Source of the DNA: a virus
Direction: 5' to 3' (one strand)
Virus record (IMG/VR): IMGVR_UViG_3300024264_000024
Coordinates: 7,647 to 71,646 of that record
Length of the DNA stretch: 64,000 nucleotides
Position 1 is the stretch's first letter, and every line of letters begins with the position of its first letter. Positions 3,017 through 24,700 of this stretch are shown one piece after another. Position numbers and translations under genes: made by a program. The notes below the pieces were generated by a model. That model ran no database searches. It had not been told where the DNA came from and worked only from the letters and a program-made list of their open reading frames with translations.

Positions 3017-3116
3017 AACCTTTTAGTTTTTGTTTTAACCATTCATAATCAGGATGAGATTTAGTAGCTAATAGTCTAAAAGAGATCTCATCTGCTAATT
3101 TATCTGCCTTATCCAT
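2994..3116 (-). CDS. 40-aa microprotein (not in ORF track)
   Basis: MDKADKLADEISFRLLATKSHPDYEWLKQKLKGYVKRKNK; TAATG overlap with the stop of 3116..6337. Confidence 0.55.
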   Translation of the reverse strand: MDKADKLADEISFRLLATKSHPDYEWLKQKLKGYVKRKNK

Positions 3117-6100
3117 TACAGTGTGTATCCAATATTATTTAATGCAGCTTTTACAATATTATAATAATACAGATTAGTATTACCATCAGCAATTTCTGCA
3201 TTATAAGTTAAATAAGTTGGAGACCCTGTTGACTCTGGGTACAACGTTTGTGTATTTATATTATATGCACTAGCTGCTGGTGGGAATCCAAATCCATTTG
3301 CAGTTACACCGCCCGTTGCCATTAAACCATTATCAGCTAATAAAGGATTAAGTTGTACTCCGTTTATTCCTGTGTTATAATCAACCGGGAAGAATATACC
3401 TCTATATATAGAATTGCTTCCTGATGCTGCTACTATGTTACTAATAAAGTTTTTAACGGTAGTTACATCATCTGTTATAGTAGTTACTGTACTATTGGCT
3501 CTATCTCCCCAATCTCCAGTACCATTACCTGCTAAATTATATGAACTTGATTCATCACCAAAACAAAGTAATTGTACTCTATCAGCATTTGGCCAAATTA
3601 ATTGATAATTAGTTCCATCTGCTGGAGTTCCGTTTTCACCTCCTGAGAAGAATGCTATCTGTCTTTCTTGATTTTGATGACACCAATAAACGTGTGTATT
3701 ATATTGATCACGTCCATTTGTAGCTGGGTCTCCATTTCCACTTGCTTCAGTTCCTCCTGTTGCATAGAAATCTTGAAGTAAGTTTCTGAAGTTAGCTGGA
3801 TCAGCATAATCTGCTGCCATTATAGCATTTGTTGTTTCAAATTTTACAATATCATTTTGATTAAGAGTATGTGGATTACTTAATACTGCCGTAGCTTGAT
3901 TAGGTATTGTCCCATCTGTATAAGATACTACAGTTGTTCCTGCTGGAACTCTAGCAGCTGCAGGCCCAACACCTACAACAGTCATACCTACTTGAACACA
4001 GTAAAATGATTTTGCTGTTTCACCATCTGCTGCATTAACTCTACCACTAGTTAAATTTGCTTGTAAAGTATTTCCAAACCTTAGAGTAGTTGTTCCGCTT
4101 CCAGTATTAGTATCAGTTATTCTAGTAATTACTTCTGGAACACTTGCCATTTTAGCAGTTCTTCTAATTGTAGTAACCATAGATCCTGAAGTATCACTCC
4201 AGTATTGGAAGTATGTGTTTACTGTAACACCTAATCCACCAATTGTAAAAGTTTGTGTGTCAGAACTTCCATCATTATCAGTTACGTTTAATACAACCGG
4301 GAAGTTACCTCCAGATGCTGGCATAATTCCACTTAAAGTTCCTGTACAGTCTCCATTGTTGGTAAAAGTTAACCATGATGGTAAACTTGGCGTTGAAAAA
4401 GATAATTGATTACACGGTGTATCATCATCAGCTACTGTCCAACTATAAGTCCACGTGTCTCCTCCTGTTAAATTAGGGTATGTACCGGCTGTTACTGGAT
4501 CAGTAGATGTCCAGATAACTGGATCTGCTACTGCTCTTACAGTTATAGTTTGTGTAGCTATATTACTATCACAATAGCCATCATTTACTGACCATTGGAA
4601 TGAAGTAACACCAAAAAAGTTAGGTTCTGGTGTATAAACCCAATTACCATTTGCAGGATCAAGAGTTATTGAACCCTCACCTGCGGGTATCTGAGTTACT
4701 AATGTATATGTTAAACCATATGAACCAAATCCATCATCATTTGCTATTACTGTACCACCTACTGAAGTATCTTCATCAATAGTAACAGTACCATTATTAG
4801 CTATAGGACATGTGTTTCCTGAATTAGACTTACAACATGCATCCCAGTATAACATATTGTTACCACCTGGTTTATCATAATTGATATAACTAAACTTCAC
4901 TGACTCACCAAATAAAAGACCTGATGTTGGGTATCCATTATCTAAACCAGGAGTCCAAGTAACAGTATTATCAAATAAGTTACCTACAGTACCCCATCCA
5001 TTAGGAAATCTAATAACATCATCTGGTAGTACAGATCCTTGTTGAATATTTTCTGCTACAACCACACCGTGTTGACCATCAGTTAAGTTGTCCATTCCTT
5101 TAATATCAACAAATGCTTGCTTAGATAAGTCTAAAGCTATGTATGCATTTAAAAAGGTTTGAGTCCATGTACCGGTTGGTCCACCATTAGCATTCATTGT
5201 TAATGTATCAAATCCTCTTTGAGGAATTATTGTTGATGCATCTCTGAACTTAACTTCATTAGCTGAACCACTATCTCTTACTAATACTTCTGTAAGAGTA
5301 TCATCTTGTGTAACTGTGTCTAGTCTTACTTCACCTGTTTGATGTAATTTACCATCATTTTTTACTTCAGTAGCTGGTGTACCTAATCCATCACCATCTT
5401 GAATCATTAATGAGCAACCTATAGTTTCATTATCAGGTGCCCATAAAGGAATTCTAAATACTTCACATAATACATCAGGTAATTGAACTGATGGATTATC
5501 TTGCCATGCAAAAGTGACTCCGTCAGATATAAGAATCTGATCTGCAGTACCAATAGCTAACTCTTGCTTTAAATTATTTATATTACCTTGCCATAAGCTT
5601 CCATAAGTTAAAGCTTCTACTACATCATCATCAGACCATACTACTCTTCCGTCAGCTAAACCTACAAGTACTTGAGATAGTTGACCTACATTTCCTTGTG
5701 AATCAGTTATTGGTCCATTAAGTACAGTATTAGAGTTTATTGTTGTAGTTGTAGGAGGTACTGGAGCCATTGTAATACTACCATGTTGTACATTTACTAA
5801 TGCAGTAAATGTAACTCCATCCATTGTAAAGTTACCATCATCTTCTAACTCTCCGTTTGGTCCTACAATAACTATTCTATCTTCAGTTAAGTCTAATATA
5901 TTAGCTGAACCTGCTGTGAGCTGTAAATTTACATTTGCGTTTTGATCAACCTGTAAGTCTCCTTCTACAGTAGCATCTCCTTCAACAACAAGATTACCAT
6001 TATTAATAGTAATAGTATCACCAAGAGCGTTCTGAGTTATGATTGAGTCCATAACAGTGTCCCATGCACAACTTCCTTCTGGTACAGTATAAACTGGTAC

Positions 6101-6337
6101 AAAACCTAAATTACCAGAACCTGGTTGTGTTCTAGTAAGATTTTCAGTTGCTTGACATACAAGATCACCCCATTTAACTACAAAAGGTTCCATTCTTGGA
6201 CCGTAGGTACCTGCATTGTTTAAAGAACTATTTTGATATAGTTTACCAAATTCAAAATGATCTCTTTGTTTATCAAGGACCAGTTTCTTTTTGTTTCTTT
6301 TTAGTAGGCCTAAGACCTCTTGTATGTATACACTCAT
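3116..6337 (-). CDS. Fibre/adhesin-like virion protein with cadherin-like (Big_9), putative Ig and vWA-like domains
   Basis: N-terminal helix shared with two paralogues. Big_9-like PIANNGTVTIDED...WVYTPEPNFFGVTSFQWSVNDG; He_PIG-like SLPSWLTF...GTLSG; MIDAS-like DTSGS. Confidence 0.7.
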   Translation of the reverse strand: MSVYIQEVLGLLKRNKKKLVLDKQRDHFEFGKLYQNSSLNNAGTYGPRMEPFVVKWGDLVCQATENLTRTQPGSGNLGFVPVYTVPEGSCAWDTVMDSIITQNALGDTITINNGNLVVEGDATVEGDLQVDQNANVNLQLTAGSANILDLTEDRIVIVGPNGELEDDGNFTMDGVTFTALVNVQHGSITMAPVPPTTTTINSNTVLNGPITDSQGNVGQLSQVLVGLADGRVVWSDDDVVEALTYGSLWQGNINNLKQELAIGTADQILISDGVTFAWQDNPSVQLPDVLCEVFRIPLWAPDNETIGCSLMIQDGDGLGTPATEVKNDGKLHQTGEVRLDTVTQDDTLTEVLVRDSGSANEVKFRDASTIIPQRGFDTLTMNANGGPTGTWTQTFLNAYIALDLSKQAFVDIKGMDNLTDGQHGVVVAENIQQGSVLPDDVIRFPNGWGTVGNLFDNTVTWTPGLDNGYPTSGLLFGESVKFSYINYDKPGGNNMLYWDACCKSNSGNTCPIANNGTVTIDEDTSVGGTVIANDDGFGSYGLTYTLVTQIPAGEGSITLDPANGNWVYTPEPNFFGVTSFQWSVNDGYCDSNIATQTITVRAVADPVIWTSTDPVTAGTYPNLTGGDTWTYSWTVADDDTPCNQLSFSTPSLPSWLTFTNNGDCTGTLSGIMPASGGNFPVVLNVTDNDGSSDTQTFTIGGLGVTVNTYFQYWSDTSGSMVTTIRRTAKMASVPEVITRITDTNTGSGTTTLRFGNTLQANLTSGRVNAADGETAKSFYCVQVGMTVVGVGPAAARVPAGTTVVSYTDGTIPNQATAVLSNPHTLNQNDIVKFETTNAIMAADYADPANFRNLLQDFYATGGTEASGNGDPATNGRDQYNTHVYWCHQNQERQIAFFSGGENGTPADGTNYQLIWPNADRVQLLCFGDESSSYNLAGNGTGDWGDRANSTVTTITDDVTTVKNFISNIVAASGSNSIYRGIFFPVDYNTGINGVQLNPLLADNGLMATGGVTANGFGFPPAASAYNINTQTLYPESTGSPTYLTYNAEIADGNTNLYYYNIVKAALNNIGYTL

Positions 6338-6357: not shown

Positions 6358-9321
6358 TTATTTTGCTACTGTTGGATAAAATCTAATTTCAATATTACCT
6401 TGATGTAAGCCCATTGTAGTTGGTGTATTGTCTTCATTTAGAAAATCAATCTCAACTGTACGTGGTCCACTTATTGAAACAGGAACTTCTCTAAAATATA
6501 GTTCTGCAGGATCAATTCCTTCTGTTATTGTAGATCTACCACCTACTAAACACCATATAGTTTTAGTACGTGCATCTTCACATGCAGTTGTAGGTTGACC
6601 TGGTGCATGTATAGTAAAAGTGTACTGACCTACTTTTGATAGAGTACAAGTAATTTCACAGCCTGTTGTGTTTTCTAACTGAGTCAATGTGATAGGAGCA
6701 CCTTTTGGGTGAGTCCATGTTGCAACGTATGTTTCATAAGGTAGAACAGCACCGCCTGATCCATTACTAGCTGCAGTAACTTGACCTTGTGCATTTACTG
6801 TAATATTAGCATTTGTATAAGCACCTGCAGTTACAGCAGTGTTATCTAAGTCAACTGTTAATGTATCTGTTGCAGTTACTGTAGTTGTTAAACCAACACC
6901 ACCAGCAATCTTTGCTGTGTTTCCATCTTTAATATCTTCAGAAGTTCCTAAGTCACCACCAAGCAACCAACCATCATATGCAGTAGGTATTGTTGGGAAT
7001 GTTTGTAGTTTAAAAGTACCATCTATGTATTGTGCTGTAGTACCTTGAACGTCCCAATTAAGTTGTGTATTTGGACCATTTAAGTTAACTTCTGTTAAAG
7101 TCATTGCTACATTTGCACCGCTTGGCCATGATGTACTTAATGACTCAATACCTGAAGCTGATTGAGCAAAATCAATTATAGCATCTATACCTCCAGTACC
7201 GTTAGACATTGTAACTCCTGGACCTGTAAACTCAAATTTACCTATTTTGGTAGAACTACCTACTTTGATACTATTTACAATTGATGGAAGACTTGTATTT
7301 AGTTGTATTGTTTTAATCCCACTACCATCAGTAGATGTAGTTTGAGATATACCAGAACCCATACTTATTTTGTCAAGCCAGTAACCTGCTTGAGTATCTG
7401 CTGCATCAATTTTAAATTTTTCATCAGTTGATACCCCACTTGTTGACCAAGGTACATTTACAACTAATTGATCATCTGAATTAAATTGAACACCGTATGT
7501 TCTATCTTTAACAGTTGATACTGCCTCAGCTGCTTCAAGCTGTACTGTATCATCCCATAATTTACCTGTTCCAGTTACCGTAGATGTCATCACTGGTACT
7601 GCTGCAGGAATAACAGGGAATGTTTCTAATGCACCATCACCTCTAACATATTGACCTGGTACCCCTTTAAATTCTAAAGTTAAGAAAGGTGTAGTAGTTG
7701 AATTTGCTACAGCAGGTACTATTGAATCTGCTATACCTGGAGTTACATCACATCCAAAGTCAGTTACAGTCCCAACATTACCTCCTGGAACTGCTGCCCA
7801 AGTATTATCACCTCTTAAGAAAGTTGTACTATCTGCAGTTCCTGTTGCTGAAAGATCTGCTGTAACAACAACAGCTCCACTTGTAGCAGATGCAGGTGTA
7901 AGTGCTATAAATGTACCATCTGTAGTATCTACTGTCTCAACTATATTTGCTGGTACACTTGGAATAGAAGGGAAAGCTTGTAAAGCACCTGTCCCATCTA
8001 TATAATCTGTTGTTGCTCCTGCACCTGCAAGAGTTAATACTCCACTAGTTGTTACAGGACTATTAGTTACAGTGAATGCTGAAGGTGCAGCTAAACCAAC
8101 ACTAGTTACTGTTCCACCACTTGCTGGAAAAGTAGATATTAATCCTTTTTTAATATCACCATTATCACTAGAATCACTAAACCAAATGTAATCCTCTGCT
8201 GTTGGTGCCACTGTAGGTGCAATAATTATTGCATTACTAGGTCCTGCATATTCTACGTTTACTACTGGATCAGTAGCTGTACCTGTTACAACTATTCCGT
8301 TACCTTCTGTTACACTTGTAACTGTTCCTCCACCACCTGATCCTTCAACCCATGGTACATTAACAACAAGTTGGTCTGCATCATTAAATTGAACTCCATA
8401 TGTTCTTTCACCTATTTCTGATACAGCTGCTGCTGGTTGTACTTGTACAATATCACTCCATAGTTTACCAGTACCAAAAACGGTTGATGTCATTTTTGGT
8501 ACAGTTGACTCTCTAGGTAAGGTTACTGTTTTAACATTTACTGCTGTTGGGTGTCCTGTTGCATCTTGTGTAATAGAATCTACTACTGTAAATGTATCTC
8601 CACCTGCTGGTGATACTGCTGATGTTGTATCAGTTCTAGTTGTATTATCATGACTAAATGTAACTGATTGATTTCCACTGCTAGCTATAGAAGTAAGCTT
8701 TGTTCCTCCTATAAATAAAACACTTTCTCCATCTGTTACTGAAAAACCACCTTCACCACCTACATTCCATGAGCTCATTGATCCAACTATTGGAAAAGTT
8801 TCTAAGTCTCCAGCACCATTAACATACTGAGTTGCATTACCTAAATAATTAAATGTAAGAACACCTGAAGTTGTAACAGGACCTCCAGAGACTGCAATTG
8901 CATTTCCATTAGTAGCAGCGTCTACACTAGTAACAGTTCCAACAAACTGATCTGTACTATTTATAGTAACATTATTAGAGCCATCATCAACTAAAGAGAT
9001 GTTTGTACCACCAATAAGTTTTACTATATCTATAGTAGCATCTGACCCTGTAAGTATTAAGTTAACAGAACCATCTATATTTCCTGCACTACTATAATCA
9101 TATGTAGTATTACCACCACCAGCAATAACTGCTGCAAGATCATATATAGAAATTAACTCTTGTTCTAGTTTTGGCAGGTATGCCATAACATTTAAAGAAC
9201 TATCTACTTTAGTAGATAAAATTAAGTAATCTTCCTTACCATCTTTATTAAGATCATATGGTTTTGGTGCGTATTTCTTTTTGGAAAATAATCCAATTAC
9301 GTCTTGCAGTAGTGAACCCAT
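6358..9321 (-). CDS. Tail fibre-like protein with internal repeats
   Basis: Gly/Thr/Ser-rich; GTVTSV and G..QY..G.G.L.TFP repeats; duplicated ~50-aa module; VTAGAYTNANITVNAQGQVTAASNG fibre motif. Confidence 0.8.
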   Translation of the reverse strand: MGSLLQDVIGLFSKKKYAPKPYDLNKDGKEDYLILSTKVDSSLNVMAYLPKLEQELISIYDLAAVIAGGGNTTYDYSSAGNIDGSVNLILTGSDATIDIVKLIGGTNISLVDDGSNNVTINSTDQFVGTVTSVDAATNGNAIAVSGGPVTTSGVLTFNYLGNATQYVNGAGDLETFPIVGSMSSWNVGGEGGFSVTDGESVLFIGGTKLTSIASSGNQSVTFSHDNTTRTDTTSAVSPAGGDTFTVVDSITQDATGHPTAVNVKTVTLPRESTVPKMTSTVFGTGKLWSDIVQVQPAAAVSEIGERTYGVQFNDADQLVVNVPWVEGSGGGGTVTSVTEGNGIVVTGTATDPVVNVEYAGPSNAIIIAPTVAPTAEDYIWFSDSSDNGDIKKGLISTFPASGGTVTSVGLAAPSAFTVTNSPVTTSGVLTLAGAGATTDYIDGTGALQAFPSIPSVPANIVETVDTTDGTFIALTPASATSGAVVVTADLSATGTADSTTFLRGDNTWAAVPGGNVGTVTDFGCDVTPGIADSIVPAVANSTTTPFLTLEFKGVPGQYVRGDGALETFPVIPAAVPVMTSTVTGTGKLWDDTVQLEAAEAVSTVKDRTYGVQFNSDDQLVVNVPWSTSGVSTDEKFKIDAADTQAGYWLDKISMGSGISQTTSTDGSGIKTIQLNTSLPSIVNSIKVGSSTKIGKFEFTGPGVTMSNGTGGIDAIIDFAQSASGIESLSTSWPSGANVAMTLTEVNLNGPNTQLNWDVQGTTAQYIDGTFKLQTFPTIPTAYDGWLLGGDLGTSEDIKDGNTAKIAGGVGLTTTVTATDTLTVDLDNTAVTAGAYTNANITVNAQGQVTAASNGSGGAVLPYETYVATWTHPKGAPITLTQLENTTGCEITCTLSKVGQYTFTIHAPGQPTTACEDARTKTIWCLVGGRSTITEGIDPAELYFREVPVSISGPRTVEIDFLNEDNTPTTMGLHQGNIEIRFYPTVAK

Positions 9322-9332
9322 TTTTTTTTATT

Positions 9333-9536
9333 TTATTTACAATATCCACTTTTGAAAGCAGCAGATTGAACTGGCTCACTTGCTCTAGTAGATTTTTGTG
9401 GTGGATTTAAATTTGTTTTCTTAGCCAATTTAATTCTTGCTTCAACCTTTCTTCTATTCTTTTTTTGCTGTATAGCTTGTGGAATAGATGTAGGGTTAAA
9501 ATAACCGTTAGTTACTTCTTTTATTTTTTTTGCCAT
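9333..9536 (-). CDS. Small basic hypothetical protein
   Basis: 67 aa, Lys-rich, in a tightly packed operon. Confidence 0.65.
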   Translation of the reverse strand: MAKKIKEVTNGYFNPTSIPQAIQQKKNRRKVEARIKLAKKTNLNPPQKSTRASEPVQSAAFKSGYCK

Positions 9537-9538
9537 GA

Positions 9539-9622
9539 CTATTTATTTTTTACGTGAGAGCCATCACAATTTCCACTTGGATCTTGTGATTGTCCACATT
9601 TACATTTTACTTTGTTTTCCAT
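9539..9622 (-). CDS. 27-aa CDGSH iron-sulfur microprotein (not in ORF track)
   Basis: MENKVKCKCGQSQDPSGNCDGSHVKNK contains C-x-C-x2-S...C-D-G-S-H and fills the gap between two genes exactly. Confidence 0.8.
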   Translation of the reverse strand: MENKVKCKCGQSQDPSGNCDGSHVKNK

Positions 9623-9626
9623 AATC

Positions 9627-9827
9627 TTATTTCTTTTTAGCTCTTCCCATGTTACCATAAGATGCTTTATTCATAAGTGGATCTAATACAGAACCGCCAG
9701 CCATAAAACCTTTTAGTCCACCACCTGCAGCCATTGATGTCATTGCTACTTTTTGTGGAGACATATCTCCATCTCCAGCTCCATAAGTTGCACCACCTAC
9801 GTTGTATTTTTCTTTTGCTTTTGCCAT
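9627..9827 (-). CDS. Small Gly-rich protein with three xxxGG motifs
   Basis: YNVGG, MAAGG and FMAGG in 66 aa; TAATG-coupled to the upstream holin. Confidence 0.7.
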   Translation of the reverse strand: MAKAKEKYNVGGATYGAGDGDMSPQKVAMTSMAAGGGLKGFMAGGSVLDPLMNKASYGNMGRAKKK

Positions 9828-10237
9828 TATTTATCTTTTTTAATTGAATTTACTTTTTCAAGAGACCTTCCCCCAAAATATGAACCTATTACTGTTATTA
9901 AAACTAACTGCAATAAGTCTGTCCATTTATCTTCTACATTAAAGTCTATAACACCTGCGTCTATAAATATTAAAATGACAGTTGATATAACTAAAAATAT
10001 AAGAACCATTGGTCTTACGTTTTTACTTAGCCAGCTATCACTGGCCATATCTGCAGCCCATCTAGTAGAGATTTCTTTTTCCATCTCTACTTCATGCTTT
10101 GCAATTAGTTCTTTAATTTTTCTTGCAGCTTCTAACTTTTCATCTTTTGATGTTATAAGTTCATCTAAGACACCACCTATACCTTCAACTAGTTTTGTTG
10201 CTCCGCCTGAAAATAATCTTGTTATAAAGTTTGGCAT
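9827..10237 (-). CDS. 3TM holin family (GTA holin-like) protein
   Basis: RWAADMASDSWLSKNVRPMVLIFL and LITVIGSYFGGRSLEK signatures. Confidence 0.8.
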   Translation of the reverse strand: MPNFITRLFSGGATKLVEGIGGVLDELITSKDEKLEAARKIKELIAKHEVEMEKEISTRWAADMASDSWLSKNVRPMVLIFLVISTVILIFIDAGVIDFNVEDKWTDLLQLVLITVIGSYFGGRSLEKVNSIKKDK

Positions 10238-10243
10238 AATTTT

Positions 10244-11362
10244 CTATTGATAAATTCTTATTTCTATTGGTGTGTCTAACAATACACTATCTTCTTCAGG
10301 TGCTAAACTAGCATCAAGCTTATTAGTAACTACTGTAAAACTAGAATTAGTAGCTGCAATTACATTTATACTGTTAGGAGCATTTTTAAATACTGGCATA
10401 GGGTTTATTATAAAGTCATCTCCAGCAGTTATTGGTGTAGACCAAGTTGCTCTATATTGTCCTACACCCACTCTTGACCATGTTAATGTTAATCCTGTGT
10501 CATTATATACTATAGTCTCTGTTGGGTCATTAGTAAGACTTTGAGTTATCTTACATATATATGCTTTATAATAATGATCTAATGCTATTGCTACTGACTT
10601 AGGATTAGCTGTTGAACCTAAAGGAACACCAGTTATTGTTCCTACTCCATTACGTCCCCAAAATAAAACATTATCTGAATCATTTACAGTAAAGCCTGGT
10701 CCTGCACCACTTGGATTCTCATCATATACATTGAAGCTAGTCATACCGCCACCTCCACCTGATGCATAATTAGGAATATTTAAAACACCACTTGCTAAAG
10801 TTGCTGCTCCAGATGTTCCATTTGTAGTTAGGCTTAAACCTGCACCTGCGGGAACACTAAGTGATATTTGATTTGTACTTTGTGCTACAACTATATTGCT
10901 TCCCTGTACTATACTTCTAAAGTTAAGTGTCTCACCAACTTTATCTTTCCATACTTCAGCACCACTTCCTACATTAGCTGCAAGATTAGGTTCTCCTTCT
11001 GTTGTTAGCTCAATGTAATTATCATCAGCAGAAATAGCAAGAGTAAGATTGCTGCTTAAAGATTTTAATGAACGGAAATAATTAGTACACTTTTCTGTTA
11101 CAGGATCTATATCTGTTTTCTGATAGACACCTGGTGTATTAGGGTTTTTAATTGCTGGTACATTTTCTAGATCACATGATTCTGATGCCACTTTAAGATC
11201 TTTAATCTTAATTAGCTTTACACTTTTATAAGGTATAGGTGAAGCAACCCCAGTCATATCAGGCTCTTCATTAACACCCAACACTAAGACATCATTAGGT
11301 TCTGCTTTCTTTGCAAAGACACCTCTTCTTAATAAACTTAATACATCCGTTAAGATATTCAT
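10244..11362 (-). CDS. Short fibre-like virion protein
   Basis: Shares its N-terminal helix and C-terminal domain with 6358..9321; NVGSGAEVWKDKVGETLNFRSI module. Confidence 0.7.
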   Translation of the reverse strand: MNILTDVLSLLRRGVFAKKAEPNDVLVLGVNEEPDMTGVASPIPYKSVKLIKIKDLKVASESCDLENVPAIKNPNTPGVYQKTDIDPVTEKCTNYFRSLKSLSSNLTLAISADDNYIELTTEGEPNLAANVGSGAEVWKDKVGETLNFRSIVQGSNIVVAQSTNQISLSVPAGAGLSLTTNGTSGAATLASGVLNIPNYASGGGGGMTSFNVYDENPSGAGPGFTVNDSDNVLFWGRNGVGTITGVPLGSTANPKSVAIALDHYYKAYICKITQSLTNDPTETIVYNDTGLTLTWSRVGVGQYRATWSTPITAGDDFIINPMPVFKNAPNSINVIAATNSSFTVVTNKLDASLAPEEDSVLLDTPIEIRIYQ

Positions 11363-11622
11363 TTCTTTCTATTTTTACTTCTCTTAGTTTTAGATGGTCC
11401 ACTATATGTGTTATGGGTTCCACCTCCTAATTTATAAGCTTGCTTTGATTCTACTCCTGTTTCATTGTTTCTTACAATTCTCTCAGCATTACCGCCTCTA
11501 TTCATCTTTTCTATTACAGAAGACATCATGATTTCTTCTAGCTCACCGCCAGATCTCATAAGCATCTTTGTTTTTTGTCTACTCATTTTTCCTTTTGATA
11601 GACATGGTCTTTTCTTTGCCAT
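11359..11622 (-). CDS. Small basic protein with three xxxGG motifs
   Basis: MRSGG, MNRGG and YKLGG in 87 aa. Confidence 0.7.
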   Translation of the reverse strand: MAKKRPCLSKGKMSRQKTKMLMRSGGELEEIMMSSVIEKMNRGGNAERIVRNNETGVESKQAYKLGGGTHNTYSGPSKTKRSKNRKK

Positions 11623-11625
11623 AAT

Positions 11626-11772
11626 TTAAAAATCAAAAGTTAATGTTACTATAAACAAATATAATTTAATAGTTCTATAATCATATTCCTTATCACTATC
11701 TATAAACTCCCATCCTAGTGCAAATCTATTGTGGGGCCAATGAAATGCTATTTCTAATTGCCAATCTTCCAT
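11626..11772 (-). CDS. 48-aa beta-stranded microprotein (not in ORF track)
   Basis: MEDWQLEIAFHWPHNRFALGWEFIDSDKEYDYRTIKLYLFIVTLTFDF; TAATG coupling to the upstream ORF. Confidence 0.7.
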   Translation of the reverse strand: MEDWQLEIAFHWPHNRFALGWEFIDSDKEYDYRTIKLYLFIVTLTFDF

Positions 11773-11873
11773 TATAATTTACTTTTTGTTTTGTTACATA
11801 ATCCTTGACGGCAATATCCTAAACAGACTTTACCCTTTGTAATCCATTGAATTAACAAACACACTTGTCTCAT
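11772..11873 (-). CDS. 33-aa Cys-rich microprotein (not in ORF track)
   Basis: MRQVCLLIQWITKGKVCLGYCRQGLCNKTKSKL; TAATG overlaps at both ends. Confidence 0.6.
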   Translation of the reverse strand: MRQVCLLIQWITKGKVCLGYCRQGLCNKTKSKL

Positions 11874-12127
11874 TACTTGACTTCTTTTTTCTTTCTGCCT
11901 TTTCTAGCTTTACCTTTTACAGCACCACTAACATCAGCAAGTTGACTGCCAACTTCTTTAATTGCTCTACCTACATCAGCTAATTCATCTGCGGTAAGCT
12001 TATATCTTTTAACTATTTCAACCAAAGTCTTCTCAGCTTTTTCATCTATAGAAGTCTTTGACCATACAGCTCTCCAATAATCTTGAGGGCCATACGTCCA
12101 TAAAACGTTTACTATTTTTTTAAACAT
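11873..12127 (-). CDS. Hypothetical helical protein with basic C-terminus
   Basis: Likely start is the ATG at 12127 (MFKKIVN...), downstream of the promoter-like motif, rather than 12196. Confidence 0.7.
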   Translation of the reverse strand: MFKKIVNVLWTYGPQDYWRAVWSKTSIDEKAEKTLVEIVKRYKLTADELADVGRAIKEVGSQLADVSGAVKGKARKGRKKKEVK

Positions 12128-12154
12128 GATAAAGTATTTTAATGTACTATATAA

Positions 12155-12242
12155 ATAATATACAAATTTTGTATCACTTAAGCAACTCAAACACATATAT
12201 TAATGCTATCTTTGTCTTGCTTGCATATGTATAATATACAAA
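12155..12242 (-). promoter_or_regulatory. Two copies of candidate phage late promoter TTTGTATATTAT
   Basis: Exact ataatatacaaa at 12155-12166 and 12231-12242, upstream of a minus-strand operon. Confidence 0.55.
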
Positions 12243-12284
12243 ATTTTACTAACAAAATTAGACATTAACCAATAAGAAAACCAC

Positions 12285-12473
12285 ATGAACAAAATTGATC
12301 ACCTACAATTTAAATCTAAATTTTCCTTAGAACTCTTTCCAACAGAAACACTTTTGGGCATAAAAACAGTCAACTGTGAAGTACTTTGTGAAGATGATAA
12401 CTACCGTCCTATGGGTGGTGTTGAATTAGGTTTTATTTTTTTTACTATAACATTTGTAAAATTGTTTGTATAG
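12285..12473 (+). CDS. 62-aa beta-stranded hypothetical protein
   Basis: Alternating hydrophobic strands; resembles 11626..11772. Confidence 0.65.
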   Translation: MNKIDHLQFKSKFSLELFPTETLLGIKTVNCEVLCEDDNYRPMGGVELGFIFFTITFVKLFV

Positions 12474-12517
12474 ACTTTTCAGTCTAATCAAAATTTCTTA
12501 CATTATATATACCAAGC

Positions 12518-12553
12518 AGCTGTATTTCTCTTATGTAGATATACAGCTTTTTT
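12518..12553 (+). terminator. Rho-independent terminator-like hairpin just upstream of nrdB
   Basis: agctgtatttct / agatatacagct stem followed by a T-run. Confidence 0.5.
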
Positions 12554-12574
12554 AACCCATAAAAAATTTTAATT

Positions 12575-13555
12575 ATGAATAAAGACATCTTTAAGTCTAG
12601 AGTAAATATATTACCTTATGAGTACCCACAACTATTAGCATACAAGGATGCTATCAGACATTCCTACTGGATTGACACAGAGTTTAACTTCACAGAAGAC
12701 ATACAAGATTTTAAAGTAAATATAACTAGCAAAGAAAAAGATGTCATTAAAAAGACAATGCTTGCAATTGCACAGATAGAAGTAAATGTAAAAACCTTTT
12801 GGGGTGATCTCTATAAACGCATGCCTATAACAGAAGTAGGTGATGTAGGTTTTACTTTTGCTGAGTCAGAAGTAAGACATAAAGATGCTTACGCTAGACT
12901 ACTTAGAATATTAGGGTTAGAAGAAGAATTTCAATCAGTAGTTAAAGTGCCTGCAATAGAAGGTAGACTTAAGTACTTAAAGAAGTACCTAGATGGTACA
13001 CGTTCTAGAGACAATAAAATGTATACTAAGTCTGTGCTACTGTTCTCTTTATTTATAGAGCACGTAAGTCTATTTAGTCAGTTCTTAATTATGATGAGCT
13101 TTAACAAAGAAAAAAATGTACTCAAGGGTATATCTAATGTTGTTGAAGCTACTAGTAAAGAAGAAGAGATACATGGTAACTTTGGTGCTGAACTTATTAA
13201 TATTATTAAGAAAGAAAACCCTGAGTGGTTTGATGCAGAGTTTGAAGAGCTCATTTATTCTGCATGTAGAAAAGCATATAGAGCAGAGTGTAGCATACTA
13301 GATTGGATCTTTGAACAAGGAGAGCTTGAGTTCTTACCAAAACAAACAATCTATCACTTTATAAAAAACAGATTTAATAACTCTCTAGAAAAGATAGGTA
13401 TGAAACCAATCTTTGAAGTAAATAAAGAAATATTAAAATCAGTAGAATGGTTTGACATAGAGATAACAGGAACCAAGGAGGGAGACTTCTTTTACAAAAA
13501 GAGTGTAGACTATAATAAAAAAAGCAAGAGCATCACAGTTGATGACTTGTTCTAA
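12575..13555 (+). CDS. nrdB: Ribonucleotide reductase class I beta subunit, class Id (Mn)-type
   Basis: Ferritin-like ligands LAIAQIEVNVK (Glu as first ligand, Lys at +4), EVRHKDAY, IEHVSLFSQF and EEEIH; C-terminal DFF..K..DY. Confidence 0.93.
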   Translation: MNKDIFKSRVNILPYEYPQLLAYKDAIRHSYWIDTEFNFTEDIQDFKVNITSKEKDVIKKTMLAIAQIEVNVKTFWGDLYKRMPITEVGDVGFTFAESEVRHKDAYARLLRILGLEEEFQSVVKVPAIEGRLKYLKKYLDGTRSRDNKMYTKSVLLFSLFIEHVSLFSQFLIMMSFNKEKNVLKGISNVVEATSKEEEIHGNFGAELINIIKKENPEWFDAEFEELIYSACRKAYRAECSILDWIFEQGELEFLPKQTIYHFIKNRFNNSLEKIGMKPIFEVNKEILKSVEWFDIEITGTKEGDFFYKKSVDYNKKSKSITVDDLF

Positions 13556-13565
13556 AACCAAAGAC

Positions 13566-15191
13566 ATGGAATATAATAAGTATTACTGGCTAAATGAAGA
13601 CAGCCGCACATTTTTATCAAGGGGATATATTACTGAATCACCAGAACAAAGAATCAAAGACATTGCTATTAAAGCAGAAAAGTATTTGAATATAAAAGGA
13701 TTTGCAGAAAAGTTTGAGGACTATATGGCAAGAGGGTTTTACTCTCTGTCTACTCCTGTATGGATTAACTTTGGTAAACAAAAAGGTTTGCCTATAAGCT
13801 GCTATGGATCCAACATAGATGATAACTTAGACAGTATACTTAACGCAGGACGTGAAATAGGAATGATGTCTAAGTATGGTGGTGGTACTAGTGCTTACTT
13901 AGGTAACATTAGACCAAGAGGAAGTGAAATATCTACAGGAGGTCATGCTGACGGTCCTATTCACTATGCTAGAATGTATGACACTGTGGTAGATGTATGT
14001 AAACAATCTGAAGCTAGACGTGGTGCTTGTGCAGTATATTTACCTGTAGAACATCAAGACATTGATGAGTTCCTAGATATTGGTACTGAGGGAAACCCAA
14101 TACAAAATCTACAGTATGGTGTTACAGTTGGTGATACTTGGATGGAAGAGATGAAAGAAGGAGATAGAAAGAAACGTAAGATATGGGCAAAAATAATACA
14201 GCGTAGATCTGAGTTTGGCTTTCCATACATAATGTTTAAAGATAGTAGCAATAATAACTCTCCTTACAAAGAACTTGGTATGGAGATCACAGCCTCTAAC
14301 TTGTGCTCTGAGATTCAGCTTCCTACAGATAGCTATAATTCTTTTGTATGTTGCTTAGGTTCTATTAATCTTTTACACTGGGACCAGATAAAAGAAACTG
14401 ATGCAATTGAGACATATGTATATTTCTTAAACGCAGTAATGGATGAATTCATTATTAAGTCTGAGACTATGCCAGGCATGAAGAGAGCGTTTAACTTTGC
14501 TGAAAAGCATAGAGCTATTGGCCTTGGTGTATTAGGTTATCATTCTTTATTTCAATCTAAGCTTCTTGAGTTTGACTCACTCCAAGCTAAAGGGTTGAAC
14601 AGTGAGATCTTTAGAACTCTTAAAGACAGAAGTGAAATTGCTTCTAGAGAGTTACACAATGAGTATGGTTATTCATCTCTTAGAGAAGGGTATGCTAACA
14701 CTACTCTTATGGCCATTGCTCCTACTAAGTCTAGTTCATTTATTCACGGTGCTGTGTCTATGGGTATAGAGCCTATTAAGTCTAACTACTTCATTAAAGA
14801 TCTTGCTAAGTCTAAGACTGTATATAAAAACCCATTCTTAGAAAAAGAGCTTGAAATGTATGGTCTAAACAATGACAAAACTTGGAAGTCTATTCTAAGT
14901 AAAGATGGGTCTGTGCAACACCTTGACTTTCCTACTAAAGAAGTATTTAAATCCTTTGTTGAAATATCTCCTAAAGAACTTGTTTTACAAGCTGCACAAA
15001 GACAGAAGTATATTGATCAATCACAATCTCTTAATTTAATGATTGATCCATCTGTATCAGCTAAGCAGATTAATCAACTGTATTTGTATGCTTGGGAAGA
15101 AGGTGTAAAAACTTTGTACTATCAATTTAGTAAGAGTAGTGCTCAGGATTTTGCACGTAACATATTAGAATGTTCAAGTTGTGAAGGTTAA
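13566..15191 (+). CDS. nrdA: Ribonucleotide reductase class I alpha subunit, no ATP-cone
   Basis: GLPISC, SNLCSEI, AIAPTKSSS, QKYIDQSQSLN, KTLYY and C-terminal CSSC. Likely start is the ATG at 13566 rather than 13539. Confidence 0.95.
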   Translation: MEYNKYYWLNEDSRTFLSRGYITESPEQRIKDIAIKAEKYLNIKGFAEKFEDYMARGFYSLSTPVWINFGKQKGLPISCYGSNIDDNLDSILNAGREIGMMSKYGGGTSAYLGNIRPRGSEISTGGHADGPIHYARMYDTVVDVCKQSEARRGACAVYLPVEHQDIDEFLDIGTEGNPIQNLQYGVTVGDTWMEEMKEGDRKKRKIWAKIIQRRSEFGFPYIMFKDSSNNNSPYKELGMEITASNLCSEIQLPTDSYNSFVCCLGSINLLHWDQIKETDAIETYVYFLNAVMDEFIIKSETMPGMKRAFNFAEKHRAIGLGVLGYHSLFQSKLLEFDSLQAKGLNSEIFRTLKDRSEIASRELHNEYGYSSLREGYANTTLMAIAPTKSSSFIHGAVSMGIEPIKSNYFIKDLAKSKTVYKNPFLEKELEMYGLNNDKTWKSILSKDGSVQHLDFPTKEVFKSFVEISPKELVLQAAQRQKYIDQSQSLNLMIDPSVSAKQINQLYLYAWEEGVKTLYYQFSKSSAQDFARNILECSSCEG

Positions 15192-15453: not shown

Positions 15454-15867
15454 TTATTTTCTTAATCCTTTATGATTATCAATCCTATCTAGAATTTTGT
15501 TAAGCTCATCTGTTTTTATCAAACCTGCCATTGAAGCATTCTTTAGAGCACTTATAAGTTGTAGTATCATAAAGGGAACTACAATTACTTCTGATAGCCA
15601 GCCTGTTCCATCAAAACCTTTTTCTATCATAAGTATGACTGTTAGAATTGCCAGCCATGTAAAGGTGTTCTTGGTTATCCTTAATGCTTTATAGGTTTTA
15701 AAGCCTTCTCTTTTACAGCCAGCCCACACTCCAAAAATGCCATCTAACCATAATACTGAACAAACCGCCAGGTACTGTTCCATGTTTTCCATTGATAAAT
15801 CAAAAAAGTACGTACATAAATACGTACAGAAGGCTGTTATACTCACTATTGATAATTTAGTTGTCAT
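15454..15867 (-). CDS. Phage holin (toxin secretion/phage lysis holin-like)
   Basis: Three to four TM segments; LDGIFGVWAG...K and ISALKNASMAG motifs. Confidence 0.7.
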   Translation of the reverse strand: MTTKLSIVSITAFCTYLCTYFFDLSMENMEQYLAVCSVLWLDGIFGVWAGCKREGFKTYKALRITKNTFTWLAILTVILMIEKGFDGTGWLSEVIVVPFMILQLISALKNASMAGLIKTDELNKILDRIDNHKGLRK

Positions 15868-15970: not shown

Positions 15971-18900
15971 TTATTTAGTTCCCATATAAAAATCATCATT
16001 CTGTAAGTATGAGTTGTATTTCTGTATAGAGTATATAATAGGAAGAACATCTTTCCAGTTTTTATAAACTTTTAAACTACCTTTTTTACTTCCTCTTTGA
16101 TATACATGTTCAGAGTTTAAATAAAATTCATCTTTGCTTTGTGTTGTATATGCTAAAGGTGTAGCTACAAGATAATACATTGCTTCTGCTAGCTCTCCCA
16201 TAGTTCTTGATGCAGCTAATGGTGAGTCAAACATCTGACGCATTTGTGTATATCCACCTAAACCTGGAATAGGATTAAATATTACAGTTTCTTTATAAGC
16301 TCTCTGTGCTTGATACTTAATCATATTCTTAAGTCTTTTAGTTAAGTCATCATCGTCATCATCAGAAAGTATATTATCTAAGATCATGCTGATTGCTAAT
16401 GTGCTTAATATGATACCTATCTCACCCATAGTTCTGTAAAAACCAAACAGTTTATTCTGAGCACGTTGATCTGCATTACCACCTTTACCATCATATCCTA
16501 TTTTCCTTTTAACACCATCTTTTCCCGTCACTGTCTTAACCTGGGCTTCCATAAACCCTTGACCGTAAGTAGTAAAGGCAATATTACCTTTCATAATTTC
16601 TCTCTTAGCATAACCTAAGAAAGACCAAAAAGATAAATATCTTCCTTCCATCCAACCTAAGTTTTGATCAAAGTATTCTCTTTGGTATCTAGCTCTTACT
16701 GCTGGTGCCACCCACTTTTTAAATTGAGCTGCAAGGTTTCCAATAGTATTACTTTGAATAACCATTCTATCTTCTTTAGCATAGTTACCATGTATCTGTT
16801 TGTTTACCTCACGTATTTTATTTCTAATCTCATATCTAATTGCATCAGTGTACTCTTGCTCAACCCCATTATATATGATTGTATTAAAACCTTCTTTAAT
16901 TTCATTTTTATGAGTCTCTGAATTATAAGTAAATGCATCATAAAAAGATAGTTCTGTCCCTTCTAATGGATGGCCTTTAGTTGTGTTCTTAACCACAATA
17001 TCCATAAGCATTGCCATACCTACTTTAGTTTGTACATTATATTCTGCAGCATCTTGCATAACATAACCCCATTCAGAAGCTCTTTCAAACCAGCTCCTAC
17101 CTTGAGAAGTTTCATAACCTGCTCCTTGTTCACGTAAGTCTGACATACTGTCCATCATTCTAAACATATCTACAAAAGCTTCCCACTTATTATTAGCTTT
17201 CTTTGGATCATAATCAGATTTTCCTAAACCAGGTATCATACCAAACGTTGCTATATCAGCAAGATCACGTGTGCTTTCTCCTGTATAAGAAGTTCTTTGT
17301 ACTAAAGACATTAAAGCTTTTTTATTAAACTCAGCAGAAGACCTCATATAAGATCCTTTCTTGTAGAACCTGCCTCCCAACATTTCTATGTTGTTATTTA
17401 TTCTACCTATAACGTAGTTATTAAAGTTACCAAATGGGTTAAATGCTACATAAGATAAAGAAGACAGTTGTATTAACCCATCTGCTATTTTATCAAAAGC
17501 ACCTTTACTTATAAGCTCATTGTCATAGAAGACCATGTTTATCCACTTCTTTGCTCTTCTTTCTACATTACTTTGTTGTGTGCTTGTACTTGCTTTTACA
17601 CCAACTGCTTTCTTTATACCATCTTTAGTTACTGTAGTTAGTTTAGTATCACCAGAAGGTTCATACTCTCTACTTTCTATAACCTTAACAAAAGCATTCA
17701 TGGTATCTTCTACAGTACTCATAGTCTCATAGTTTTGTGCCATTGCACTAAACTTTAATAGACTTGAAGTTAAGTCTGTACTTATCTGACCCATTGATGG
17801 TTTTGATCTTAACCGTTGTCTTTTACCATTAAGTGCTGCTATATCTGTTTTATAATCATCTGAACTAATTTCACCTTTTTTTAACTCATCTTTTTTAGCT
17901 TGTATTTCTTTAGATACTTTGTCTAGCTCAGCATCTGTTCTAGGTACACCAGTATAAAATATAGGCATTGAGTTTACCAAGTTGTTGTTTTCATCTAATG
18001 AAATACCTTTAGTTGATGATGTTCTTTTAAATGTATTCCAAGCTCTGCTTCCTATTGTTGATGCATAAAGTTTATTATAAAGACTGCTCTTTCCTTTAAG
18101 CTCATTTAAGACACCATTCATCACTAAAGGAACTCTACCTGTCATTTGATTCATAACACCACCTGGTAGCATTTTTAATAACTCTCCTTCAAACATTCCA
18201 ACAAAAAGTTCATAAAATTCTTTTTGAGCTTGTTCTAATGCATTGTTAGGCTTCATTATTTTCCCATACTTTTCACTAGTCATATCTCTACCAGATCTTG
18301 ATGTGCTAAGTGCAGTAACAAATTTCTTTTTAGCTGCACGGAAACTTTGATCTTTAACTATTGATCCAATAGGTTGACCGTTTACTCTAACAGCTTTGGT
18401 ATACGCATGCATGTCATAATACTTAGCTTCATATGTTGTATACTTTGCATCAGATATGTTGGGTTTTCTATACCAATTACCGTAAGGATTAGATTCATCA
18501 CCAGGAACAAAGTACTCATAAATGTCTCTTGCATCTTTAAACTCTTGTGTATAACCATGGTACTCTCCATCTACTGGGTTTCCTGATTCATTTTTAATCT
18601 CAGCTCTAAAGAAATCACTAAGTGCTCTTTTATCATTTGCTAACTTTATATTATAGTCTATGTCTTCTTTAGAAGCATCATCTAGATTGGTAATGTCTCT
18701 ATAGTAATATGGGTCTCCTTCATTATCATATAATCTAGATCTTATCTCATCTTGCATTTGATAATATTGTTGACCTATTCTTTTAACATAGAATCCTGTA
18801 AATTGACCATCATCAGAATATTCTAACATAAAGTCATAAAGCTTTTCTAAATCCTTATTGTTTGAAAGCTTTAATAATTTTTGTCCAGCATTTCTTATAA

Positions 18901-21745: not shown

Positions 21746-24700
21746 CTATTTTAATATGCAACGTTTAATATTATCTATAAAATCTTTCTGACTCTCTTCA
21801 GATGTCTTTGCTGCATCTTTAGAAAACCTGCTTTCATATGCCTCAATCATATTAGACAAAGGAAACAAATTTTGATTAATTAATGTCAGTCTAGCAGCTT
21901 TATCTTTTGTAATAGCATCAAACTCTTCAGTAATTATATCATAAGAATCAGCAAGTTCAAATTGTAAATCTAATGTAAGTTGTTCTTGTTCAGCTGTCAT
22001 CTCTGGCATTGCTTGATCAACATCTTCTATTATATTTCCTTCTAATTCTTGTTCATTTATTGATTGTTTATCATCTTTCTTTTGAGCCTTGAGTTGTTTT
22101 ATATCTGATATATTAACACCTCTGCCTTCTACATCATAACTAATATTTACACCCTCTTCAGTAGCTGTAATTATTGAACTTTCATTTTTTAAAGCCTCTT
22201 GCTGAACAAACTTATTTTCATCAATTGACATTTCACTTATTTCTGATTCAATCTTTTTAACATCTAAAGCAGTACCTGCTACCCCTCCGTTGCTTCTTAC
22301 ATATTCTCTAACTTCAGTATATGTTGGTCTATCTCCAAACATAAATCCAATTCCATTTTGTTGATTAGACCCCATTGTATCTACTTCATTAAATACATTT
22401 TGTTTGATAGATGATAACTGAGTGTTATATCTAAATGTCTTATATACTTTTTGACCTGTTACATTACCAAAACCAACTCTTAAGTATTTAACTAATGGTG
22501 CCTCAGCAGATCCTTCTGTATTCTTTATTACTAATTTCTTTTCTGTTCTATCATATCTAACTGTGCTTGGTAATGGTGTTATTTCATCTGTCTCAATTGT
22601 AAACAACTTAGAGTTATTTGCATTAGATAATAAATAACCATCAGAAAATTCAGCTTTCATCTCATCTACTGTTATACCAAATGTATCTACAAATGATATT
22701 TCACCTTTCAGTGCTTTCTCAACAGATGGTAATGTATCTAAATAAGAAGTTAATACTACAGGGCTTATTACTGATAGTAAAGAACCATAGCCCAATTGTA
22801 AACCACCTTTAACCATTTCATAGTTAATGATTGTTTTAGCATCATTTCTAGTTTCTAATGAACCATACAGCTTAGCAAAGTCATTTTGAAGTTGAATCTT
22901 TTGACCCGCATTAAGTTGTCTAAATGTATTAGAGTTTGCTTGATTAAATCCTGCATTACTTTCTGATGCTTTTGTTGTAATCACATAATTATCTAAGAAG
23001 AAATTATTCTTACCTACATCAGTAGTACGCAATCTATCAATAACATCTACTATAGAATTATATTCTGTTGGATAAATTATATCATTGCTTAATGTTGCTA
23101 CTGACTGAGCATCACTATCCAAACCTTTTTTCTGATATGCTTTAATAGATAAGTAAGAAAGTAAATCTAATCTCACCTTTGCCATCACATCTTCTGTAAA
23201 CTCTATTGTATTAGTGTTCATTTGACTAATAGCAGGATCTAATATTTCATTAAACTGTGGTATTGTAGATATAAAAGTAGCAGGCAATAAATCATTTGTT
23301 ATTTGAGTAAATATTTTCAAATAAGTATTTTGCCAAGTGTTTCCATAATATATAGGTTTTACATCCATAGGTAACTCTAAACCAGGAGCAGCATTAAATA
23401 AAGAAGCAGTGTCTTTATATTTTTGATTTACTTCAGCAATGCTAGCACCTAAACCTTTTGTTAAACTAGTAGGAGCTCCCATCTTAGATGTAAATTCTTT
23501 TAGCTGTGTTCCTTTTGAAAACACATTAAGTATGCTCCACATTTCATCTGTACTCACATCTTCAGGGTTATTAAGTGCATCTATTAATAATGCATCATCA
23601 ACACGTACAAATTTTCTTTTGCCTTTTACCCTTTCTAATTGTGCTATTGTAAGATCTGTAAGCTTACTAACTCCCGGATCTAATTTAGAAGATTTGTTTA
23701 ATGCCTGAGAATATATATCCTGTATAGTAGGATTATTAACTAATAGTAATGCTGTCTTTAATGGTACAGTCAATGCTGTTAAATTAGCCAATAAACCAAC
23801 AGCATGTCTATTTAAACCTAACTTAGCAACCAAACGGTCTTTAGCATTATCAGTAGCCATTGTTATTAAAGCTGAAAGAACATCTTGCTTTCTACCTCCT
23901 TGTTTATATTCTGTCTTACCATAATCATTATAGGCTTGACCATTCAAATATATTGCAGCTTTCTTAGTAAGTTTAACGTTATACTCTGTAAGCAAGCTTA
24001 AGTATAAGTTAGGTAATACAACTGCTCCAATTGATGCCCCTTTATTAGCAGTAAATGCTTTTATCTTACCGGTCATATTATCTACATCAATATTCCCTTC
24101 TTCAATTCTTTCTTTAAATACATCAGAAACTTCTGCTAGCTCAGCAAGAACACCTGTTCTAGTCTTAGCATCCCAAAGAACATTTGTATTTGCAGCTTGA
24201 TAAGAAATAGGCACCCCATCCTTAGATTCAGAAACACCTTTGTTACCAATTAAAGCATATCTATAATCTAAAACTTGATTGTTTAATGGAGCTGCAAATG
24301 GTACACCATGTTTTTCATTATATGTATCAAATTGACTTGACGTAACTGGCAAACCTAATGTTTGTAATGCTCTTATAGTTCTTTTTTCTAATCCTGCTTT
24401 TAATGCTGATTTTATTTGAGCATCTGTAACTTCAGTTGCTCCCTTTAATTCATTGCCTGCAAATAAACTTAATGCCTCAGAGTAAGTTGTACCTGGTGTA
24501 TTTGTTTTTTGATTTGCATATCTAATATACTCTTCATATAAATTACCTTTACCATACTCTATAAATTCTCCGTCTTGCACATAGAATTCTTTCATCAAAG
24601 AGAAAACCTTATCTATATCAAAATCTGCTCCTGATACTTCAACAAGTTCTTTTGCAAACATTGCTGTTGATCCATAGTATGCTGGTAGGAAATCTACCAT

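Follow-up and report, generated by a model that had tools for sequence, protein, structure and literature searches.

A 27-codon gene in a late phage operon

We analysed a 64,000-nucleotide stretch of viral DNA, hereafter the window, which corresponds to positions 7,647–71,646 of virus record IMGVR_UViG_3300024264_000024 (71.6 kb; 63% complete according to CheckV) and has a G+C content of 32.7%. The ORFs from approximately 12196 down to 3116 all lie on the minus strand, and embedded among them is a very short gene (9539–9622, minus; ATG at 9622–9620, TAG at 9541–9539) that encodes the 27-residue peptide MENKVKCKCGQSQDPSGNCDGSHVKNK. Its upstream neighbour (9627–9827, minus) encodes a 66-residue protein of family F5, rich in Gly and with a basic tail, and ends in a TAA (9629–9627) that is separated from the ATG of the micro-ORF by the four nucleotides GATT. 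On the other side, two nucleotides (TC) separate its TAG from the start of a gene for a 67-residue basic protein (family F4; 9333–9536, minus). The micro-ORF therefore fills the gap between its neighbours with 4-nt and 2-nt spacers, as the first-pass annotation had described, and reads on the minus strand. Neither neighbour belongs to a known Pfam or PHROGs family, and PHROGs likewise holds no family for the 27-residue peptide. No terminator-like site was found in 9000–12600.

The surrounding genes place the micro-ORF in a late block. Upstream of the F5 gene lies a holin gene (136 aa; 9827–10237, minus; phrog_3427, E = 1.1e-30; the match of its product to GTA_holin_3TM, E = 3.5e-4, was under the cut-off). 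Downstream of the F4 gene are two large genes, one encoding a 987-residue protein with a weak filamin-repeat match (family F0; 6358–9321, minus; E = 0.039) and the other a 1,073-residue protein with bacterial Ig and cadherin-like domains (3116–6337, minus; Big_9, E = 1.5e-13; Cadherin_5, E = 2.3e-8). The F0 gene recurs beside the module in related phages, and its product is probably a fibre- or adhesin-like virion protein. The late setting beside a holin and fibre genes that had been proposed at first pass is thus borne out by the holin match and the large Ig-domain, fibre/adhesin-like genes. Virion and tail-fibre proteins are also encoded in the window.

Translation signals bear on the likely host. 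A Shine–Dalgarno-like motif accompanies 1 of the 37 ORFs in the window, and 24 of the 37, including the micro-ORF, have an A at position −3, which is described in the available part of Baez 2019 (PMC6847099) as a positive start determinant in Bacteroidetes lacking Shine–Dalgarno sequences. A genome essentially without such sequences and with A at −3 fits a Bacteroidota-type host, which we infer for this phage.

Several other features of the window are recorded here. The F5 and F4 genes (3411–3817 in locus L001), whose products are conserved and very basic, stay adjacent in related phages and are followed there by a gene for a conserved 114-residue protein that is absent from the window. Two further small ORFs are tightly packed in the late block on the minus strand (11626–11772, 48 aa; 11772–11873, 33 aa), and one of them has a weak PHROG match (phrog_27835, E = 0.019). 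A second weakly holin-like ORF (15454–15867, minus; phrog_199, E = 1.1e-4) lies beside a block of giant minus-strand ORFs, at 21746–35725 (4,659 aa), 49648–56016 (2,122 aa), 15971–21739 (1,922 aa) and 44636–49648 (1,670 aa). The 1,670-residue product alone has recognizable domains, LysM and transglycosylase at residues ~1023–1177; the other three have no PHROG at E ≤ 0.001 besides a weak exonuclease match. Plus-strand genes within 93–863, 882–1181 and 12575–15191 encode a GroEL-like chaperonin, truncated at the start of the window, as well as MazG and the small and large subunits of a class I ribonucleotide reductase.

An in-frame ATG at 9658 would extend the micro-ORF to a 39-residue form that overlaps the upstream gene. 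This exact 39-residue sequence is found on 32 contigs, and it is the form used by gene callers. We rejected this start: in relatives a stop codon immediately precedes the conserved ATG or lies three codons upstream of it, and the conserved product is therefore the 27-residue peptide. Codons 7–23 (9554–9604, minus) encode a long-loop CDGSH-like module, CKCGQSQDPSGNCDGSH, with C7, C9, C19 and H23 as presumed ligands, preceded by six residues and followed by four. The module motif appeared in 0 of 300 first-order Markov simulations of the window, and the expected number of occurrences of the bare pentapeptide CDG(S/A/T)H is 0.027 per window.

The micro-ORF is conserved and optional

Related loci were collected through the holin; 597 of 600 stretches were confirmed and the best 80 of the 597 were kept. 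In three of these 80 a 27-codon orthologue occupies the same position, and orthologues of the same length were found in L002, L004, L021, L083 and L088. Within the Cys-Asp-Gly-Ser-His codons, the nucleotide differences among such orthologues fall mostly at third positions. Among the six 27-residue orthologues, pN was lower than pS in 15 of 15 pairs, and dN/dS was 0.10–0.60 in the 14 pairs with computable dS. Within the motif core, the closely related pair formed by the window and L083 differs by no synonymous and five non-synonymous changes. The micro-ORF is a genuine, conserved gene for a 27-residue protein, and the first-pass reading of it as a protein-coding ORF is upheld by its recurrence at 27 residues, with synonymous changes, in related phages.

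The gene is also dispensable in its lineage. In L001, the closest holin relative among the best 80 (87%), the F5 and F4 genes abut with 2 nt between them and without the micro-ORF, indicating that the gene is an optional insertion in the lineage of the window. Such dispensability, the shortness of the ORF and the failure of gene callers to recognize its true start would all suit a non-functional sequence, either a chance or decaying frame or a spacer for translational coupling between the neighbouring genes. The absence of the motif from every simulated window, the low pN relative to pS in all pairs and the invariant Cys, His and Gly of 48 distinct sequences whose gene contexts are unrelated argue against such an explanation, which we regard as very improbable and already close to refuted.

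Assembled contigs from three seawater metatranscriptome runs span the micro-ORF without mismatch (9000–9807, 9269–9949 and 9401–9962); they document its presence in RNA libraries and are no proof of transcription. Metatranscriptome contigs from a relative match 9522–9544, carry a replacement of 9378–9522 and part from the window sequence precisely at 9544, where the micro-ORF has its boundary; this pattern probably reflects a co-occurring strain without the insertion. In a set of 50,697 cultured-phage records, no match was found to the DNA of 9000–12500, and tblastn of the peptide at E ≤ 1 and E ≤ 10 also returned no match, a search limited by the low-complexity filter and the short query.

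We considered whether the product is itself a holin or antiholin and rejected this identity: the peptide has no hydrophobic stretch, and the gene accompanies the same holin in just the three of the best 80 loci noted above and is missing from L001. Given the same distribution and the lack of a membrane segment, nothing links the gene to the lysis timing that had been suggested at first pass.

The module is a long-loop variant of the CDGSH motif

The published CDGSH motif, as set out in the available part of Lin 2011 (PMC3174974), comprises 17 residues, with eight between Cys4 and Cys13 that end in P11 and hydrophobic residue 12. The phage module keeps the 3Cys-1His ligand order C-x-C ... C-x3-H, with C7, C9, C19 and H23 invariant in 48 of 48 distinct family sequences, and the residues listed in that part of the source as maintaining the site (C2, C4, S/T7, C13, D14, G15, S/T16 and H17) are all kept in the family; the window counterparts of (S/T)7, D14, G15 and (S/T/A)16 are S12, D20, G21 and S22. 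The loop differs from the canonical one. As noted at first pass, it is one residue longer, with nine residues between the second and third Cys, and its Pro is shifted, lying one place earlier relative to the third Cys in the window peptide. The nine residues end in P-S-G-N in the window and in (P)-x-G-x in the family, and every alignment of the module to canonical motifs needs a one-residue gap.

The Pfam model recognizes this sequence poorly. The search with zf-CDGSH (PF09360) that the first-pass annotation had proposed as a check fails (11.9 bits against a cut-off of 29.5; E = 0.29), with the module aligned to positions 32–47 of the 48 of the profile, and three of four orthologues match weakly (best E = 0.076). 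Other comparisons reach CDGSH proteins. With a profile built from the 48 family sequences, 7 of 10 PDB hits were CDGSH proteins, the best being 3tbn_A (E = 0.0022), followed by 3tbm_A (E = 0.055), CISD2 chains (E = 0.14–0.57), CISD3 and At-NEET; the other three hits were two actinidin chains and one unrelated small protein. Alignment of the family to seven canonical-only CISD proteins with hhalign gave a probability of 94.9% (E = 4.2e-8) with a one-column gap, a result that is not independent because the family profile had itself been used to retrieve these seven proteins.

The strongest evidence for homology comes from three intermediate proteins, P0224, P0268 and P0334, which are full-length homologues of the type-6 CISD 3tbn_A (E = 6.3e-21, 1.3e-21 and 2.6e-13, respectively) and are also homologous to human CISD3. 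In each of them the long loop aligns to the first or the second canonical motif with a single one-residue gap. P0224 (41.1 bits), which is known from one 1.9-kb contig, and P0236 (53 bits) pass the Pfam zf-CDGSH cut-off. Loop length ranges from 8 to 13 residues among such full-length CISD-like proteins, and one protein consists of three bare modules with canonical spacing. Because the long loop replaces a canonical motif within two-motif CISD proteins, the reading of the phage module as a natural variant of the CDGSH cluster loop, one residue longer, is well supported by sequence comparison. The kinship with CDGSH domains claimed at first pass accordingly stands through profile searches and intermediate proteins, although it does not reach the Pfam gathering threshold.

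Everything around the loop is missing. According to the available part of Lin 2011 (PMC3174974), a CISD domain combines the 17-residue motif with a beta-sandwich, an N-strand and a P motif that includes a lid-proline, and that part of the paper concludes that the modules are obligatorily paired and that the sandwich is required. The window peptide has a polar residue in place of hydrophobic residue 1; it lacks the N-strand, the lid-proline and the beta-sandwich, and offers no room for a strand. An AlphaFold2 model of a 40-residue single-module homologue (L094; pLDDT 72.0) contains one short helix and no strand of three or more residues; the model of a tandem protein (P0005; pLDDT 56.3) was unusable. 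Searches with the L094 model returned no Foldseek match in the PDB at E ≤ 10 and no VIA-align match at Z ≥ 2 among 48,161 chains; the model is too small for these tools, and these null results consequently say nothing on the fold. The window peptide is a single module, and 43 of 358 fetched relatives are tandem-only.

The module family in viruses and beyond

Scanning viral contigs with four of the orthologues yielded 112 stretches, of which 90 were confirmed and 78 loci kept. All 78 contain C-x-C-G-x8-C-D-G-(S/T)-H at identical spacing, and the fuller pattern in the family is C-x-C-G-x-(S/T)-x4-G-x-C-D-G-S-H. Eight positions (C7, C9, G10, G17, C19, D20, G21, H23) do not vary across the 48 distinct family sequences, and the conservation of S22 is at least 90%. 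Stand-alone ORFs of 27–58 codons from stop to stop account for 60 of the loci, and in one the module lies within a 103-codon frame. In the remaining 17, it forms the extreme C-terminus of XkdF-like prohead proteases (PF14550, E ~1e-12, with DUF3721), encoded in a portal/protease/scaffold/capsid-like gene order.

These fusions raise the possibility that the peptide is a virion-assembly module that docks on a capsid or assembly protein and is packaged or morphogenetic, whatever metal it binds. The position of the micro-ORF among virion and other late genes of the window would fit such a role, as would three loci (L139, L142 and L146) in which a tail-less XkdF-like gene is immediately preceded by a free micro-ORF, and 87 of the 120 long homologues among the matches listed contain PF14550 and/or PF12518. 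Against it, an XkdF-like gene is absent from the 63% complete record and from all five micro-ORF-bearing, near-complete (94–100%) relatives, most copies of the module occur in bacteria without a phage context, and the lack of the micro-ORF in the closest relative means that the gene is not needed for assembly. We consider an assembly role improbable. DUF3721 was not found in the virus record of the window, which is 63% complete.

DUF3721 has features of its own. It is carried by module-ending XkdF-like proteins of L151, L118, L123, L124 and L152 (PF12518, E down to 1.7e-15), and in L151:1876–3063 it reads G-C-x-G-x-H ... W-M-P-C-x2-H (residues ~177–208), a second small Cys/His motif. XkdF-like head proteins may thus hold two different mini metal sites.

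The family extends well beyond these viruses. Searches of large protein collections yielded 617 short and 562 long proteins at E ≤ 1e-3, and in a library of 1.84 billion proteins the module matches 363 clusters at 50% identity. The 358 fetched proteins divide into 276 with a single long-loop module, 43 made up of two or three such modules and little else, 12 hybrids of long-loop and canonical motifs, 14 whose motifs are all canonical and 13 in which the motif is damaged. A precomputed Pfam hit exists for 1 of the 120 short homologues among the matches listed. We found the module in marine phages, streamlined flavobacteria, Verrucomicrobiota and probably algae.

Some architectures are elaborate. 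In P0143, three tandem modules follow an N-terminal segment resembling an organelle transit peptide. P0185 joins three modules to a PAP_fibrillin domain (E = 2.8e-32), and the PSP1-domain protein P0243 (E = 3e-28) ends in a single module. The module has thus reached probable algae as well as other proteins in bacteria.

Bacterial homologues lie near redox genes

A scan of bacterial genomes returned 257 stretches, of which 222 were confirmed. The best 80 of the 222 come almost entirely from marine Flavobacteriaceae and other Bacteroidota, some on complete chromosomes, and 79 loci bear the motif. In 56 of the 79, the gene immediately upstream, in the same orientation, is YceI-like and ends 25–82 nt before the first Cys codon of the module. 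In one further locus (L226), the module is fused in frame to a YceI domain through a hydrophobic segment, bringing the YceI-linked flavobacterial loci, adjacent and fused, to 57 of 79. A module at G079:C8:8856–8933, in a genome of the family sample, lies within a 238-residue open frame that may represent a second module–YceI fusion. In an even sample of the family, 10 of 201 genomes, mostly small ones, contained the module.

Other neighbours recur in these 79 loci, including genes for MarR regulators (31 loci), rhodanese (30), divergent HxlR regulators (19), FMN reductase (14) and pirin (13). The trp operon, which also recurs nearby, we take to be a mere neighbour. This bacterial context leans, indirectly, towards redox or electrophile-stress biology, and the PSP1 fusion of P0243 leans towards redox as well. 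The YceI-linked bacterial modules comprise the same 17–18-residue unit, whereas in the window the unit forms a free 27-residue phage protein, encoded in a late operon without YceI.

Among the roles suggested at first pass, redox sensing or redox chemistry is the one to which any evidence may point, indirectly and through the bacterial homologues rather than the phage, in which no redox or iron gene is adjacent to the micro-ORF. Iron scavenging is not borne out: nothing links the micro-ORF to such a role.

We also considered a RiPP precursor and rejected it: Pfam and PHROG searches found no modification or export enzymes among the 11 ORFs surrounding the micro-ORF, and there were none in the 78 viral and 79 bacterial contexts.

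A candidate minimal metal site

Taken together, these comparisons lead us to propose that the peptide is a free-standing CDGSH loop that likely binds a labile [2Fe-2S] cluster, pairs and serves as an accessory redox or cluster-carrying factor, a reading whose chances we put at about half. It would be made late, co-directionally with the holin, small basic and fibre-like genes, and would wrap a metal centre, with C7, C9, C19 and H23 as its ligands. The homology makes a [2Fe-2S] cluster the most likely centre, a call in which we have about equal confidence and doubt. Such a cluster would be exposed and labile, because the beta-sandwich, the N-strand and the lid-proline are absent. General turn propensities suggest that (D/N)-P-x-G could form a self-contained turn, taking the place of the hydrophobic anchor that in canonical motifs lies buried in the sandwich. 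Two peptides, or one peptide and a host module, would probably pair back to back, because CDGSH modules always work in pairs. Most speculatively, the peptide may act as an accessory redox-active or cluster-carrying factor that touches host redox or iron–sulfur homeostasis late in infection; it would not be an essential part of the virion or of lysis.

A different metal would change this picture. The module may be a descendant of the CDGSH loop that has become a zinc or single-iron knuckle, in which one Zn2+ or Fe held by three Cys and one His forms a rigid structural or binding unit without redox activity. Four ligands lie within 17 residues, with no hydrophobic core and no elements to shield a would-be cluster, and a 3Cys-1His knuckle of such size could equally hold zinc. 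The module also occurs as a terminal appendage on XkdF-like protease, PSP1, PAP_fibrillin and YceI proteins, as small zinc knuckles often do, and one source gives the name 'CDGSH-type Zn-finger protein' to 15 of the 120 short homologues among the matches listed, although this name is historical. What weighs against a knuckle is that S/T7 and the D, G and S that shape the CISD cluster site stay invariant or nearly so, that the long loop replaces a canonical motif inside otherwise normal two-cluster CISDs, and that the tandem pairing of modules recalls the obligatorily paired CISD modules described in the available part of Lin 2011. We judge the knuckle to be a possible but distinctly less probable outcome than the [2Fe-2S] loop.

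The closest known systems to the proposed [2Fe-2S] loop are the type 5/6 CISDs (MmCISD, PDB 3TBN; human CISD3/MiNT, PDB 6AVJ), which share C-x-C ... C-D-G-S/T-H, an S/T after CxC and D-G-S, and which have natural hybrids with the long loop in place of either motif. Type 5/6 CISDs are proteins of ~80–90 residues with a beta-sandwich, N-strands, lid-prolines and eight-residue loops ending in P-hydrophobic, whereas the phage peptide is one bare 27-residue module with a nine-residue loop ending in (D/N)-P-x-G-x. The type 1 proteins mitoNEET/CISD1 and CISD2 (PF09360) have 3Cys-1His ligation in common with it, together with the weak profile match to CISD2 chains; unlike the phage peptide, which falls under the Pfam cut-off, they are membrane-anchored homodimers whose soluble domains, of ~70 residues, form a strand-swapped sandwich. 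Rubredoxin and desulforedoxin are very small metal–thiolate proteins whose fold is essentially the metal site, as that of the phage peptide would be. They bind one iron through four Cys and are longer than the peptide, and we claim no sequence relation to them.

More broadly, and with considerable reservation, the 27-residue peptide and its relatives of as few as 21–26 residues could be the smallest natural iron–sulfur proteins, each a coreless, labile [2Fe-2S] cradle, probably paired, that would serve as a plug-in redox or cluster-transfer module in marine bacteria, algae and phages; the phage copy would then be an accessory gene that taps or senses the Fe–S or redox state of the host late in infection. 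The apparent use of the bare loop hundreds of times, as single, tandem and fused modules, contradicts the need for a beta-sandwich as stated in the available part of Lin 2011. If [2Fe-2S] binding is true, the peptide would be a natural minimal iron–sulfur peptide that can be made by chemical synthesis, would open a new way to study the holding and release of NEET-type clusters, and would represent a new class of phage accessory gene concerned with iron or redox in the iron-poor ocean. If zinc binding is true, an iron–sulfur motif would have been recycled as a zinc knuckle.

No publication on a CDGSH module that is minimal, free-standing or viral came up in a literature search. In five text files of the six supplements of Lin 2011 (PMC3174974), six G-x-CDGSH strings occurred 0 times, a count from which alignment gaps and line breaks could hide matches, and the available part of PMC5859297 makes no mention of virus, phage, short or minimal. 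The CDGSH likeness of the module is already recognized in the automatic names given by one pipeline. With its true start, the gene lies under the size cut-off of gene callers, and genes of this kind are therefore systematically missed or mis-started.
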